Shown: positions 1 through 51,000, counted from the stretch's first letter. The stretch is DNA of 64,000 nt from Gammaproteobacteria bacterium (GCA_047601185.1 JASGJS010000001.1:1217305-1281304); one strand, 5' to 3'. Made by a program: the numbers.

Positions 1-3000
1 TTGATGGGAGTTATGACGCATGGCCAAGCGGATACCGTGGCGGATGTGGCGAGCCATGTTTCTGGTGTTACTCAAGTGGTGAAAATATTTGAGTATGAGC
101 AGTAATGATCTCTTTTACCCCTCATCCGGCCTCACGGCCACCTTCTCCCACAAGGGGAGAAGGAAACAGCTCGCCACTCCAATCTTCGTAGCCACCCAGT
201 CTTTCGAGCCTGCCACTCCGATCTTCGTAGCGCTGATCTGTTATTTTATCTTACAAATCCAAAAGCGAAAAGACTGCATTTTTAAAACGACGATTCCGTT
301 TTAATATCTCCACGGCACGATAAGGCAGTGTTCTTAAAAGGACTTAACAAGGGATTGAACCGCCGTAAAATGGACTTCAATTCAGGACGAAGCATTGCCT
401 TTTTTTCTCGTTGTTCTTAGTCTATTTCTAAAACTTCTCTTTGTTCATTCGCTTCAAATTCGGTAGGGCTGTCACTCGATTGAATAGAGGGTGATTTTGG
501 TTCCGGAGCCGAAAATAATCCTACCCTTGCTAATAAAGCCCCCTCTGATAATTTATCTGGAGACTGAAGTAAACTCGAGTTTGATGGTGATGACGGACTT
601 GAAAAGGAATCTTGATCCGTAGACGGGCTTGATGGTTCCGAAATGGAACGGGGGATCTGACTTTTTGCCATATGGATCATCGCAGTTAAAGTGGCTTCGA
701 TCTTTTGCACTTTCTCTGGTAAGAAGCAGATTTTTGCCAAGTCCTCTATGTTTTTGATAGGTTGAGTCATATCGGCGTGGTTTTGAAGAAAAAGAGAATA
801 GGGTTTTGATACCAGTAGATCTCGTAGAGGCTGCAATATCTCTTCTGCAGCTAATTCCCGTTGAATATTGTCTTTAAATTTAATATTGATAAAAGCATTG
901 GTAAGATTTTTTTTCTCCGGAAGTGTTTCTAATGCATCAGGGACACTCTTTAAAAAATCGGCACTATCACTCAAGCAGGTGTAAATAATGCTTTGGTGCG
1001 GAATTCTAACTTTTTCGCTGTTTCCGCGTTTTATTTTTTTCTGCTTTAGTGCATGTTTGCGTTGTTGTGCGAAAGATATTCTAAATGAATTATACAATTT
1101 AGTTTCCGTTAGCAGTGTATTTTTGACTAAAAAATAAACGGTATTGTTATCAGCGATAAAGCAAGGTAATAGCGCAATGATTGCTGGTACGGGTCTTAAG
1201 TAACCTATTAAACGGAATTCTGTAGGAATAAAGGAGGGAGGTTCTGCTTCAGTCTTTTGAGGTTCTGCTTCAGTCTTTTGAGATTGTGTCGCTTTGCTTA
1301 GAGAGGGCTGTTTTCGTTTTTTAGATTCTTGAACGGTAGCTTCAGCCTTTACTTCAGATTTATTGGAATCAGAAATCATAGGAGCGATTGTAGGTTGGAT
1401 GGGGCTGAGTAGCTTTGGAGATAATGTGGGTTCTTCTAAAGTGTTGGGAAGGCTGTCGCTTATATCAGGAACCTCACTCACAGGATTAAATCTTGCTGAG
1501 TCAGGTAGAAAAATTTCTGGTGGTGATTTAATCGTAGAATCAAAAAAATTCAGTGTATGTAAAATACTATCCTCTGGAGCTGGTGACTCATAGGAAGACA
1601 GGTAAGGTGTGAAAAATAAAGGTGGTAGAGGAAAGAAAGACGAAAAATATTGTGATTCTGTATGGGTTCTGAGTTGCTCAGATGGAATTGAATGCCAAAT
1701 TGATAAGAACTCCTTCCCTGTAATTTTTTTCATTTCTGCTAATGGATCAACCTTTTCCTTTCGTTCTAATGGGGCACAGCCGGCTTTTTTGTCATCTTCG
1801 CACATATTTTTATTCTCATTTGATTAAAAAAAGGATTGTAAGCGTGTATATTAGTACCTTAGAGATAATATCCAGTCAATGAAAAATCAGAGGTGAGGAT
1901 TGAAAATTTATCTAGTAGGAGGGGCGGTCCGCGATCAGCTATTAGGCCGCCCCATTCAAGAACGCGATTGGGTGGTGGTGGGAGCGACGCCCGCGGATAT
2001 GTTGGCGCTGGGTTATAGACCCGTGGGCAAAGATTTCCCAGTTTTTCTGCATCCGCAAACGCATGAAGAGTATGCGCTAGCCCGTACCGAACGCAAAGTG
2101 GGTCTGGGCTACAAAGGCTTTACGTTTTATACCAGCCCGGAAGTTGGTTTAGAAGAAGATCTGGCGCGCCGCGATCTCACCATCAATGCCATGGCTCAAA
2201 GCCTTGGGGGTGAGTTGATTGATCCGTATCAGGGTCAGGCTGATTTAAAGCAGCGGCTGCTTCATCATGTGTCGCCGGCTTTTATCGAAGACCCCGTGCG
2301 GATTTTGCGGGTAGCACGCTTTGCGGCCAAATTTGGGGATTTTACCGTGCATCCCGACACATTAGCGCTGATGCAGCAAATGGTTAAGCTGGGCGAAGTG
2401 CAGGCACTGGTGGCCGAGCGAGTTTGGCAAGAATGGCGAAAAGCGTTGGCGGAACCTTACCCTGAACGGTTTTTTGAAGTATTGGCGGCGTGTGAGGCTT
2501 TGCCAATCTTATTTCCTGAGCTCATTTCTAAAATGGATGTGCCGGCCTTGCAACGTGCTGTCCAGCAAATGCCAGACACGGTGATTCGACTGGCTGTCAT
2601 GTGTCATGCCTTGTCTAAAACAGCCCTAAGCGACCTCAGCGCGCGCTATCGCCTGCCTTATGAATATGCTGATATGGCAATTTTAGTGGTTGAGCATTAT
2701 TCGACTTACCAAAAAATCGAAACGTTATCTGCGGAAGACATCGTGGGCTTTTTGGAAAAACTGGATGCTTTTCGGCGGGCTGAGCGATTTAGGCAGTTTT
2801 TATTGGCGAGTCAAATCATTGAAAATGTGCCAACCTCTTCTCAAAAATCTCAAATGTTGGAGGAGATTCAGGGTTTGACGCAGGGGGTTGATCCGCAGCC
2901 TTTATTGCAGCAGGGGTTGAAAGGGCCTGAAATAGGGCGGGCGTTACATGAACAGCGGGTGGATATTGTGAGAGAGTTTCTTAGAGAGCTAAATTTTTGA

Positions 3001-48000: not shown

Positions 48001-51000
48001 TTATTCTGTATAAGCAAATTAAAAAAGTTACAATTCCGCAAGTTATAAGACTTAATAGATAGCCTATGGCTAACGTCAGATCATGATGCAAATATCCATG
48101 TAAAATTGTAAAAAGTTGAATCAAATTAAATCCAAAAAAAGTAATTAAAGAGAATCCGACTGCATCTTTGGTTTTATAGAGTCGGATAGCTTGTGGCACG
48201 AATAAAGCTGCATTTACAAATAGTCCTAAACTGAAAAAAGTTTCTATAAAGCTTTGAAGCCACATAATGATCTCCTCACCCCATGATTAAGGGCAAAATC
48301 CTTCTACGAAGGCCGATGTTTACCTCTGACTCACAGGAATGATTTAATTATACTACCTATTTTTGGGGATATGAATATATTAACTATTAAAAATGCCAAC
48401 AATTAATATATTTAAATATTATATAGCTGCGATATAATACTATTTTTTTGTAATAATTCGAAATTCTTACCGCTAAACAGCCTGAAGCAGATTGGGTGAT
48501 TGGGAGGTTGATGTAACTGATCAATATAACTGGTTGACTTAAACTAACCCCCAGGCTATCCTTACTTAAATACGGTTTTCCGAATTTAAGTAGGGTTAAT
48601 TTATGGATAACACGCTTTTTGATAGCATTTATCAACAAAACCCTTGGCTGAAGAGCTCTTCAGAGCCTATTGTTCATGATGGAAAGTATATTCAGCGGGT
48701 ACAATATGATTTCCTCACTGACCCTGCCTGGGATCATTTATGGACAATCCTAGTGGGGCCTCGTCAAGCAGGCAAAACCACTTTAGGTAAACATTTATGT
48801 CAACAGCTGATTCACCAACAACGTTATCAAAATTTACTCTATTTAAACTGTGATTATCCTGAAATTCGTCATTGGCTCAAATCTTCGGTATTTTTATCAG
48901 AAGCAGCTCAGGCATTTGCATTGAAAGATTACATTTTATTTATTGATGAGGTGCAGCGTCTTGAAAATCCAGGTTTACTGTTAAAAATTATTGCTGATTT
49001 AAAGTTGCCCATTAAAATGCTGGCTTCTGGATCTTCGCAATTAGAAATTAAAAGTAAAATCCAGGAACATTTAACAGGGCGACAGATTGAAAGTGTCATA
49101 TTGCCTTTGAGCAGCCGCGAAATGGATTTTACTCATCAGTGGCAAACTATTTTACAATATGGCAGTTATCCTCAAGTTTATCTTCATGAAAGTCGTAAGC
49201 CTATTCTTTTGCAAGAGTTGTTTAACAGTTATTTACAAAAAGATATAATAGAATTTCTTCGAGTAGGTAAACCTGAGGTTATTTTGCAATTGTTAGGGCT
49301 ATTGGCCCATTCTTGTGGACAATTATTAAATTTTCAGCAATTATCCGTGGATTGTAGAGTCAATGTTGAAACAATTCGTCATTATCTTGATATACTCGAA
49401 AAAACTTATGTGATAAAAACCATTAAGCCATTTGTCGGTAATAAACGTACAGAACTCACATCCAACCCGATTTGCTACTTTATCGATAACGGATTTCGCA
49501 ATCAGGCTTTGAACAATTTTACCCCCATTGAAAGTCGCACAGACGGGGGTCTTTTAGTCCAAAATTTTGTCTTTCAGGAAATTTATAAATATCAACTACA
49601 GAGCAGAAAAAATTGGCAGATTTGTTATTGGCGAACGAAAGGAGGAGCAGAAGTGGATTTTGTGATTAAAACCAGTTTTGACACGGTGATTCCAATCGAA
49701 GTGAAATTCAGAAATTTAGCAGGTCTAACGCTCAGTCGCGGCTATCGGTCATTTTTAGACTCGTATCAGCCAGCACAAGGGTTTGTGATCACTAAAAATC
49801 AATTCGGAGAGCTAACTTATCCGCATGGGCGAATTTATTTTATTCCTTTTAGCGCGCTGCCTGAGCTATTTATGATGCTTTAAAAGTCATTATTCAATCT
49901 TTTAAATCAAAAGCTTGTATGGCGCCCCCTCATCCGCCTATCGGCACCTTCTCCCACAAAAAAGGGGAGAAGGCGCCACACCGAACCTTTAAGTGTTTCC
50001 TCTTAGTTCACTGCCATTGAAAGTAAAGGCCTCAGAAGCAAAAACTTCAAAAATGACTAAAGAACCCATTATTGCTATCCAGCATTCTTCAAGAAAACAA
50101 ATAAAAAAGGTATCCATTCAGCACAGCCTAAGAGAAGCTTGAGCTCAGAATAGGTAGGAGGCGTCGTCCTCGCAGGATGCGGGGATCCAGTCTGCAGGAA
50201 GCAAACTTTATATCCTTGTATTCTGGATCCCGGCATCCATGCCGGGACGACGCCTCTTGCTTAATTTAAGCTCAAGCTTCCCTTAGGACGTGCTGAATGG
50301 ATAATAAAAAAGTTGACATAATGGTTCCAATGTTTAATGATAATGATTCTCATTAACATTTAAGCAGGTGAAAAAAATGACCACAGAAGCCTTAGAACCT
50401 CAAAACCAACCTCACAAAGGGGATAAGTGGACAAACTTTAATACCGGCTTTCAGATGATATCCGGTACTGCTGGGGGTTTTTATTTGGTGGGTGATACCG
50501 TTGATTTGTTTGGTAATTTTCATCGTATGGCGCTGGGTCTTTCTTTACCAGCGATGATCATTGGTTTAACGGGCGCTATCTTTATAGCTTTGTGTGAGGC
50601 ATACAATCATCAACAGCTGAACACTTATCACCAAAAAGAAAATATAGAGGACATGAAAGCTGCGCAAAGCCCTGCAACTCAACAACCCTTACTCCCTGCA
50701 AAGGAAGAAGACACATCGGAATTGAGCAAATTACAAGGGGTCGCCTTATTTGGCTGCTTTATTGCGCACACAGTGGAATTTGCTGCACCGTTAATTTTTA
50801 TTTTTAATTTGACGTTTGCTGATCAGTTGCCACATTATACGCAAGTTCTTATCGTACTGCTGGTATTAGCCTGTGCAGCTTTAGCCTCAATAGCCGATGT
50901 AAGAACTGCTAAAACGGCAATAGAAGAATTAAATGCTCAATCTTTAAGCGTAACAAACCCTCCTGTTGCGGTATAAAGAATGCTGCAATTATTGAAAAAA

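Follow-up and report, generated by a model that had tools for sequence, protein, structure and literature searches.

RESULTS

Hairpin repeats and genes of the window

The 64-kb stretch of a Gammaproteobacteria bacterium genome analyzed here (GCA_047601185.1; called the window below) contains, scattered between its genes, a family of short GC-rich hairpin repeats, which is the subject of this work. Besides ordinary housekeeping genes, the window encodes IcmH/DotU (180 bits, the cut-off being 50), which belongs to a type IVB secretion system, together with an IcmF-like protein and several Sel1-repeat proteins, and the best match of the host IscS in the protein collection was 68% identical. Because of these features, the host appears to be a Legionellales-like, low-GC gammaproteobacterium. 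The icm genes together with the Sel1-repeat open reading frames (ORFs) point to a Legionellales-like intracellular lifestyle (Table 1).

The search for the exact hairpin core, CCTTCTCCC-N3-6-GGGAGAAGG, gave five matches in the window and none in 100 shuffled sequences. When one mismatch or a longer loop was tolerated, nine complete hairpins were obtained, and these, together with two decayed half-units at 40934 and 40972, were distributed over seven intergenic regions. All copy counts for the window refer to 64 kb, and the term "high-copy," used in a preliminary description of this DNA, is an extrapolation from that stretch. The same description proposed a modular, dispersed intergenic family of the type of repetitive extragenic palindromes (REPs) and bacterial interspersed mosaic elements (BIMEs) rather than a local duplication, and the location of the copies at seven unrelated intergenic sites over 50 kb bears this out. 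The hairpin core, arms, and tail that it delimited are real, with coordinates that hold within a few bases.

Architecture of the repeat unit

The basic unit is ∼47 nt long and consists of the tag CCCCTCATCCG, a GC-rich hairpin (P1), the dinucleotide CA, and a 9-bp hairpin (H; CCTTCTCCC/GGGAGAAGG). The 11-nt, single-stranded tag was present in eight copies in the window with no mismatches, and the full tag-P1-CA-H architecture was found in eight of the nine hairpins. P1 and H are exactly the two hairpins given by both RNA and DNA folding predictions. The GC content of the units is 57%–68%, compared to 41.5% for the window.

The units fall into two subtypes, with identities of 94%–98% within a subtype and 82%–91% between subtypes. 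In subtype alpha (u2a, u2b, u4a, u5, and u7) P1 has the sequence GCC-TATC-GGC, the loop of H is ACGGAG or A-rich, and the unit runs into a B arm or a diverged B-like arm. In subtype beta (u1, u4b, and u6) P1 is GGCC-N4-5-GGCC, the loop of H is ACAAG or ACAGG, and a T tail comes next. The B arm, which is ∼60 nt long, is present in three copies at three loci, 93%–94% identical, and in a diverged copy at 3060-3111, while the T tail, beginning with AAACAGCTCGCCAC, occurs in three copies and several diverged ones. The high identity within subtypes and among B arms suggests that the family spread fairly recently within the host genome.

Several copies are composite. Units u4a and u4b form a tag-facing inverted dimer with a predicted folding energy of −97.7 kcal/mol (z = −14.3), while u2a and u2b, paired in H-facing orientation, flank the perfect 22-bp palindrome GCTACCTCGACGTCGAGGTAGC, whose presence agrees with the preliminary description and of which a half copy lies at 24494-24510. 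Folded as single-stranded DNA, the region 3011-3288, which holds the H-facing pair, reached −86.4 kcal/mol (z = −12.4), and its inverted arms are ∼80 nt long with ∼80% identity; the region 24605-24732 is likewise an inverted pair. The region 3011-3288 had been described as a full MITE (a miniature transposable element with inverted repeats). Its inverted arms and palindrome stand, but the region is an inverted pair of units, and neither a target-site duplication nor a related transposase was seen, which leaves its status as a MITE unproven. Copy u3, which has neither tag nor P1, is made up of a B arm in reverse orientation, followed by H and a T tail, and it has the appearance of a recombinant with its junction at the palindromic H.

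Hence, the window family consists of proliferated, structured, non-coding repeats, and its mosaic organization is like that of BIMEs and of the intergenic mosaic elements specific to Rhizobium (RIMEs), because the two subtypes combine with B and T arms and with each other as inverted dimers and chimeras. No target-site duplication was found, as the flanks of all units at the seven loci share no direct repeat. In comparisons with Rfam only tRNA was matched in the window at the gathering threshold, and the double copy at 24450-24790 gave only chance miRNA-like matches at E values up to 10.

TABLE 1. Positions of the repeat units and of other features in the window
Feature	Position	Strand	Remarks
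Complete H hairpins (nine)	141-163, 3036-3059, 3239-3262, 18968-18990, 24605-24632, 24710-24732, 26933-26956, 41012-41034, 49947-49973		
u1, beta	118-163	+	Tag CCCCTCATCCG 118-128; P1 GGCC-TCAC-GGCC; H 141-163, loop ACAAG
T tail of u1	164-236	+	T tail 164-187, then second T-like copy 207-231; host-specific arm
u2a, alpha	3013-3111	+	H 3036-3059, one stem mismatch; then diverged B arm
22-bp palindrome GCTACCTCGACGTCGAGGTAGC	3120-3141	none	Perfect; between inverted u2a and u2b
u2b, alpha	3207-3283	−	H 3239-3262; tag 3273-3283; diverged B/T2-like arm 3207-3238
u3, chimeric	18905-19019	+	Reverse-complemented B arm 18905-18967; H 18968-18990; T tail 18991-19019
u4a, alpha	24494-24653	−	Tag 24643-24653; H 24605-24632; B arm 24540-24604; half palindrome 24494-24510
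Spacer of tag-facing dimer	24654-24685	none	32 nt; own small hairpin AGGCTT-N7-AAGCCT, then T-run
u4b, beta	24686-24761	+	H 24710-24732; with T tail
u5, alpha	26912-26990	+	H 26933-26956; with T2 arm
Decayed subunits	40934-41011	−	Two decayed H-plus-T-like subunits (∼40934, ∼40972) and T tail of u6 (40988-41011)
u6, beta	41012-41058	−	Within ilv gene cluster
u7, alpha	49926-50040	+	H 49947-49973; B arm 49974-50040
icmF-like (1033 aa) and icmH/dotU (270 aa) genes	19031-22941		
Sel1-repeat ORFs (at least four)	10534-12177, 27452-28717, 32092-33024, 61041-63587		
AAA_14 + DUF4143 ATPase genes	33038-34261, 34355-35494, 48603-49883		Three paralogues, first two adjacent
Second repeat family	37885-38029, 50111-50303		145 and 193 bp; CGTC type at 37928-37972 and 50150-50267
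Direct duplications	52580-52767 / 56055-56243; 56289-56358 / 63519-63588; 58411-58525 / 63584-63698		Three pairs

Position of the units relative to genes

All seven loci are intergenic, and no ORF of at least 90 aa overlaps an element. The repeats occupy five of the 12 convergent gene junctions, compared to two of the 45 other junctions (Fisher p = 0.003), which agrees with the earlier remark that the copies lie at gene ends and mostly between convergent genes. Two copies are located between co-directional genes, one of these inside the ilv cluster. The stops of the flanking genes lie 0–47 nt ahead of the element, which contradicts the suggestion that the repeats lengthen real genes, while the spurious ORF at 89-304 (71 aa) indeed consists of repeat sequence. 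Among the eight tagged units, five are placed 6–42 nt past a stop codon in the sense orientation, and three are antisense to the adjacent genes. For example, u2a starts 12 nt past the stop of the CCA-adding enzyme gene, u2b 6 nt past that of a QueD-like gene on the minus strand, u5 11 nt past that of iscS, and u7 42 nt past that of an AAA_14/DUF4143 gene, while the tag end of u6 is located 29 nt upstream of the ilvD start codon. The AAA_14/DUF4143 gene ahead of u7 is the third of three paralogous ATPase genes, and a 35-nt inverted repeat (34272-34343) is located between the two that are adjacent.

The core hairpins are not canonical intrinsic terminators, in which a GC-rich hairpin is joined to a U-tract, and the terminator role proposed in the preliminary description does not hold for them. 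No T-run follows H on either strand in any core hairpin, and the terminator scan of 18–29 kb called none of the five H hairpins there, but only the hairpin of the dimer spacer and a hairpin in the T arm.

Occurrence of the core unit in other bacterial phyla

The beta unit matched 144 Rhizobium, Sinorhizobium, and Shinella plasmid or chromid records at 80%–86% identity. The copy on pSymB of Sinorhizobium meliloti reads CCCCTCATCCGGCCTGCCGGCCACCTTCTCCCCGCCAGCGGGGAGAAGG and adjoins a related CCCTCTCCCC hairpin. The scan of genomes, one per species, for the H hairpin with an AC-initial loop identified at least 117 loci. The genome matches listed included Mesorhizobium, Bradyrhizobium, Devosia, Caulobacter, and Brevundimonas, as well as seven loci in metagenome-assembled genomes (MAGs) of low- or mid-GC Gammaproteobacteria, and Planctomycetes, Chloroflexi, Cyanobacteria, and a melainabacterium. 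The same tag and P1 hairpin preceded 137 of the 165 hairpins among the matches listed. The window units were 92%–94% identical to copies from Bradyrhizobium, a planctomycete, and a gammaproteobacterial MAG, and 78%–94% identical to all external copies compared, which are upper estimates, because the external copies were picked by an exact match to H.

These matches show that the core unit belongs to a multi-phylum family and is not specific to the host. On the other hand, the B and T arms had no match in 2 Mb of unit-carrying loci, and in a metagenome collection the B arm gave no matches and the T arm only two chance matches in high-GC coding DNA. Hence, the mosaic is composed of a universal core joined to lineage-specific arms. 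Inverted arrangements of the unit are common elsewhere, as among unit pairs with gaps of up to 100 nt 92 were tag-facing, 65 H-facing, and 14 direct. A full-text literature search for the 10- and 11-mers of the motif returned unrelated papers only.

P1 differs from the rest of the unit in that its sequence varies and yet stays paired by compensatory changes. There were 251 distinct inserts among 487 units, and most of them could be folded. In an alignment of 44 sequences 81% of P1 cells were paired, compared to 60% in shuffles, and 58 cells were changed on both sides, compared to 25 in shuffles. The covariation score was 0.368 versus 0.111; none of 500 shuffles reached this value, and slid controls did not exceed 0.094. 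The P1 pairs were counted on a MAFFT alignment, which misaligns the 3′ arm of H where the loop length varies.

Two further observations concern particular groups of matches. In Chloroflexi a unit without P1, CCCCTCATCCCCCC-N3-CCTTCTCCC..., was observed at L113 (Roseiflexus MAG; 24-450) and L018 (5142-5397), and the tandem arrays there are regular, with periods of 72 and 108 nt, which superficially resembles a CRISPR array. Most of the unit-carrying IMG/VR contigs (L119-L238) share one conserved gene cluster, and because of this recurrent cluster the "viral" matches seem to represent orthologous regions of chromosomes or proviruses and not independent phages. The shared cluster may correspond to a gene-transfer-agent or prophage cluster of Alphaproteobacteria.

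DUF559 endonuclease genes next to the units in other genomes

When the ORFs of the 117 genome loci listed were clustered, DUF559 was the only clearly unit-adjacent cluster spanning several genera, the other clusters having been used without identification of their contents. The DUF559 cluster comprises ORFs of 107–132 aa from Mesorhizobium (two loci), Phenylobacterium, Brevundimonas, and the planctomycete Paludisphaera, and their products belong to PF04480 (DUF559; E = 1e-30 to 1e-39). All five of these ORFs are located within 65 nt of a unit, compared to 20% of all ORFs (p ∼3e-4). In two loci the units and the gene are ordered H←tag, gene, tag→H, and the gene takes up the 330–410 nt that separate the tags.

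The association was also seen in searches that started from the protein. All four DUF559 homologs examined on long contigs, which lie in different gene neighborhoods, were flanked by units, and units were present in seven of the eight intergenic regions flanking these homologs, compared to one of 12 other intergenic regions at the same loci (Fisher p = 7.7e-4). In a viral-contig collection searched with a three-sequence profile, four of five independent DUF559 loci were flanked by inverted units of variant sequence, e.g., with an CCCCTCACC tag and CCTCTCCC or CCCTCTCCCC stems. Among plasmids of PLSDB, 10 of the 38 records holding a DUF559 gene were sampled (Sinorhizobium, Azospirillum, Neisseria gonorrhoeae, Sphingomonas, Deinococcus, Shinella, S. 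meliloti, Methylobacterium, Picosynechococcus, and Photobacterium), and a tag-plus-hairpin unit, judged by eye, was found within 200 nt of the gene in all 10 and on both sides in several. The unit variant matches on the two sides within a DUF559 locus, while it differs between loci. Hence, the unit family is statistically associated with DUF559 genes elsewhere. This association, the second, variable hairpin, the two subtypes, and the multi-phylum core go beyond the preliminary description.

The DUF559 family profile matched the structure PDB 3hrl (E = 1e-36), while its matches to PvuRts1I and to the homing endonuclease I-Bth0305I were weak. DUF559 has been placed in the Vsr group, which includes I-Bth0305I (PMC3424549). 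The Caulobacter DUF559 protein VsrA causes DNA damage in vivo, and an SOS response when a cytosine methylase is removed (PMC12907096). In the literature searched, no link of DUF559 or Vsr-like proteins with REP-type repeats was found.

Other repeats in the window

The window also contains a second, unrelated MITE-like family of two copies with long inverted arms (Table 1). Its core is CGTC-GTCCCGGC-ATGGA-GCCGGGAT-CCA, with GTAGGAGG ahead of it, which follows the grammar of CGTC-tagged REPs (Di Nocera 2013). By description it resembles QMITE2 of Coxiella burnetii (150–190 bp, GTAG REP), and it had no match in the plasmid collection.

Directly past u5, an ∼18-nt short tandem repeat (CAAGCTTCAAGCGTTTCT and variants; 26965-27045) links this unit to an array of four tandem copies of a 98-bp unit, 96%–99% identical, at 27049-27440. 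The array lies shortly downstream of the 3′ end of the minus-strand Sel1-repeat gene at 27452-28717, and the GC-rich hairpin GGGAGCGCGGGCAGCTTGCCCGC of the 98-bp unit recurs at the other end of this gene in both orientations (28669-28700 and 28805-28846). A 33-nt in-frame tandem repeat (12371-12478; three copies, 90%–95% identical) is located inside the ORF at 12215-12667. The last 12 kb contain three pairs of direct duplications of 70–190 nt, 94%–99% identical, which are unrelated to the hairpin family (Table 1). A low-GC island at 44000-48300 (28%–37% GC, compared to 41.5% in the window), in which four ORFs lie on the minus strand and repeat units are absent, may be of horizontal origin.

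DISCUSSION

Comparison with known repeat systems

As short GC-rich extragenic palindromes, with nine hairpins in seven intergenic regions of 64 kb, the repeats described here are like the REPs and BIMEs of enterobacteria and like the REPINs (REP doublets forming hairpins) of Pseudomonas, which are coupled to REP-associated tyrosine transposases (RAYTs). As in REPs and BIMEs, units of two types follow each other in alternating, inverted orientation, interspersed with other short motifs, and the inverted doublets form long hairpins; in other genomes 157 unit pairs were inverted and 14 direct. The likeness to REPIN–RAYT systems also includes a small nuclease gene flanked by repeats, which in the case of DUF559 is found in other genomes. 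However, the unit differs from REPs and BIMEs in having two hairpins and the 11-nt invariant tag CCCCTCATCCG instead of GTAG, and the flanked gene differs from that of REPIN–RAYT systems in encoding a PD-(D/E)xK DUF559 endonuclease instead of a Y1/HUH transposase. Moreover, REPs are lineage-specific, while the sequence of this unit hardly changes from phylum to phylum.

The REPs of the GTAG and CGTC superfamilies consist of a tag, an 8–9-bp stem, a short loop, and a short tail, with head-to-head dimers predominating, and the CGTC repeats, described as most common in Alphaproteobacteria, are said to have no transposase associated with them (PMC3733652). The window unit has the same grammar and the same dimers as these REPs (Di Nocera 2013), but its tag and stem sequences differ, and the hallmark used to recognize the superfamilies, GTAG or CGTC at a fixed position (PMC3733652), was not found in the 44-sequence unit alignment. 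QMITE2 of C. burnetii, a GTAG REP and IS1111 target (PMC5896051), is like the window family in its related intracellular gammaproteobacterial host, its small and full-size versions, its location in 3′ untranslated or intergenic regions, and its BLAST relatives in Alphaproteobacteria (PMC5896051), although, compared by description only, it fits the second repeat family of the window better.

In the rhizobia, pSymB of S. meliloti carries the same tag-P1-H unit as the window. The S. meliloti copies are probably what has been annotated in the rhizobia as RIMEs and Sm-repeats, and these elements are likewise intergenic mosaics of large palindromes. Unlike in the rhizobial case, the host here is a low-GC gammaproteobacterium, and it has B and T arms of its own.

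The Correia elements of Neisseria and the Rickettsia palindromic elements are also abundant small palindromic repeats at gene ends that can alter transcripts or ORFs, as the repeats can here. Terminal repeats of 26 bp, a TA duplication, and an integration host factor site characterize the Correia elements, while the Rickettsia elements are inserted within genes, in frame. Neither these Correia features nor in-frame insertion was seen in the window family. Hence, from the resemblance to BIMEs or Correia elements that had been proposed, the BIME-like mosaic stands, while the likeness to Correia elements is of a generic kind only.

Possible mobilization of the units by DUF559 endonucleases

The explanation that we favor, with confidence that only slightly outweighs our doubt, is that the units are selfish, non-autonomous DNA copied by a trans-acting enzyme, the best candidate being the small DUF559 (Vsr-like, PD-(D/E)xK) endonuclease. 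Mobilization by DUF559 is put forward as a hypothesis and not as a result, with a link that rests on other genomes. The enzyme copying the units would be encoded elsewhere in the host genome, and a DUF559 gene between or beside inverted units would parallel the RAYT gene between REPs. The nuclease would recognize the tag and the hairpins in extruded or single-stranded DNA and nick there. New intergenic copies of the unit would then arise by repair or strand-switch synthesis, while the reshuffling of the arms would come from recombination at the palindromic H. Where copies are transcribed, a stable hairpin would follow right after the stop codon, and, by analogy with E. coli REPs, it could hinder 3′-exonucleases.

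More tentatively, and rather as a possibility than as an expectation, the units, along with the variant sequences seen in other phyla, could be the non-autonomous partners of an unrecognized class of selfish elements built around a DUF559 endonuclease of ∼110–130 aa, a counterpart of the REPIN/RAYT pair that moves between phyla. Such movement would explain why a non-coding unit of 47 nt keeps ∼90% identity between a Legionellales-like bacterium, Bradyrhizobium, and Planctomycetes.

Several observations weigh against mobilization by DUF559. Neither a DUF559 gene nor a transposase was found in the 64-kb window, which was searched as a whole using tblastn and by family scans of ∼40 of its 63 ORFs, and neither a target-site duplication nor an empty-site polymorphism was seen. 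The gene–unit arrangement is not uniform, as Caulobacterales show the tag-facing order, Deinococcus the H-facing one, and Neisseria the direct one, and this variability is as compatible with a gene residing in, or aimed at, repeat clusters as with one that mobilizes repeats. VsrA, the one DUF559 protein that has been studied, was interpreted by its authors as a mismatch-repair enzyme (PMC12907096). The DUF559 samples comprise tens of loci, partly read by eye, and, as mentioned above, the identities to external copies are upper estimates. Also, compensatory change in a DNA palindrome, such as that in P1, can arise by templated correction, without selection.

Alternative explanations

The DUF559 genes could instead be free-standing, homing-endonuclease-like genes that cut the repeats and insert into them, the units being landing pads spread by other means, which we regard as unlikely. 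The membership of DUF559 in the Vsr group together with the homing endonuclease I-Bth0305I, the location of the gene at the center of dimers that are otherwise without an ORF, and the differences in gene–unit arrangement between taxa are consistent with this explanation. It leaves unexplained, however, the multiplication of units without an ORF, and the search for split units in unit-carrying loci gave seven orphan halves and no convincing pair split by an insertion, so that no split unit marks an insertion point in the loci searched. The same search was directed at the earlier remark that such repeats can be targets of insertion sequences, which may or may not be true of these units. The agreement of the unit variants on the two sides within a locus, and their differences between loci, do not help the insertion of homing genes over mobilization by DUF559, as they are predicted by both models.

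It is quite unlikely that the units are classical REPs or REPINs moved by a RAYT (a Y1/HUH tyrosine transposase) encoded elsewhere, with the DUF559 neighborhood being incidental. The organization of the family is REP-like, as the units are short GC-rich extragenic hairpins in inverted dimers and in mosaics with other motifs, and the biology of REPs and RAYTs is well established (PMC2817692, PMC3116915, PMC3479197). The conserved single-stranded head, on the other hand, is CCCCTCATCCG, whereas the catalogued superfamilies of REPs carry a GTAG or CGTC tag, and DUF559 alone formed a clearly unit-adjacent cluster spanning several genera among the 117 genome loci listed. Moreover, RAYT-linked REPs are usually lineage-specific, while the present unit is ∼90% identical across phyla.

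There is little likelihood that the repeats are a host-selected cis element, such as a terminator, an mRNA stabilizer, or a protein-binding site, kept by function and not by mobility. This would agree with the sense orientation of five of the eight tagged units at 6–42 nt past a stop codon, with the maintained pairing of P1, and with the near-invariance of the tag and H across phyla. However, three tagged units are antisense to the adjacent genes, the dimers hold both orientations, H has no U-tract and was not called as a terminator in the 18–29 kb scanned, no Rfam family was matched, the copy number and positions are wholly different between genomes, and the copies at 40934 and 40972 have decayed.

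Finally, it is highly improbable that the units are MITEs of a conventional DDE insertion sequence with the tag-plus-hairpin as terminal inverted repeat, because, even though the inverted termini at 3011-3288 and 24605-24732 are long and the copies are shorter than 300 bp with no coding capacity, no target-site duplication was seen at any of the seven loci, single units and chimeras are common, both inverted arrangements occur, which is unlike a transposon with fixed ends, the window scans, covering ∼40 of the 63 ORFs, detected no transposase, and no other multi-genus protein cluster stands beside the units at the loci listed elsewhere. A parent insertion sequence with the same ends was not seen in the window or in 2 Mb of unit-carrying loci.

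Implications

The repeats explain a spurious ORF and the GC-rich intergenic islands of the host genome, and they will break assemblies. They also mark the 3′ ends of mRNAs that may be stabilized. REP-type repeats are normally confined to a lineage, and a non-coding unit that hardly varies between phyla is unusual among them. This near-identity and the association with DUF559 genes are the parts that a specialist would find surprising. If the link to DUF559 is true, it would give a biological role to the large DUF559 family and would add a second class of enzyme to the story of REPs and REPINs.

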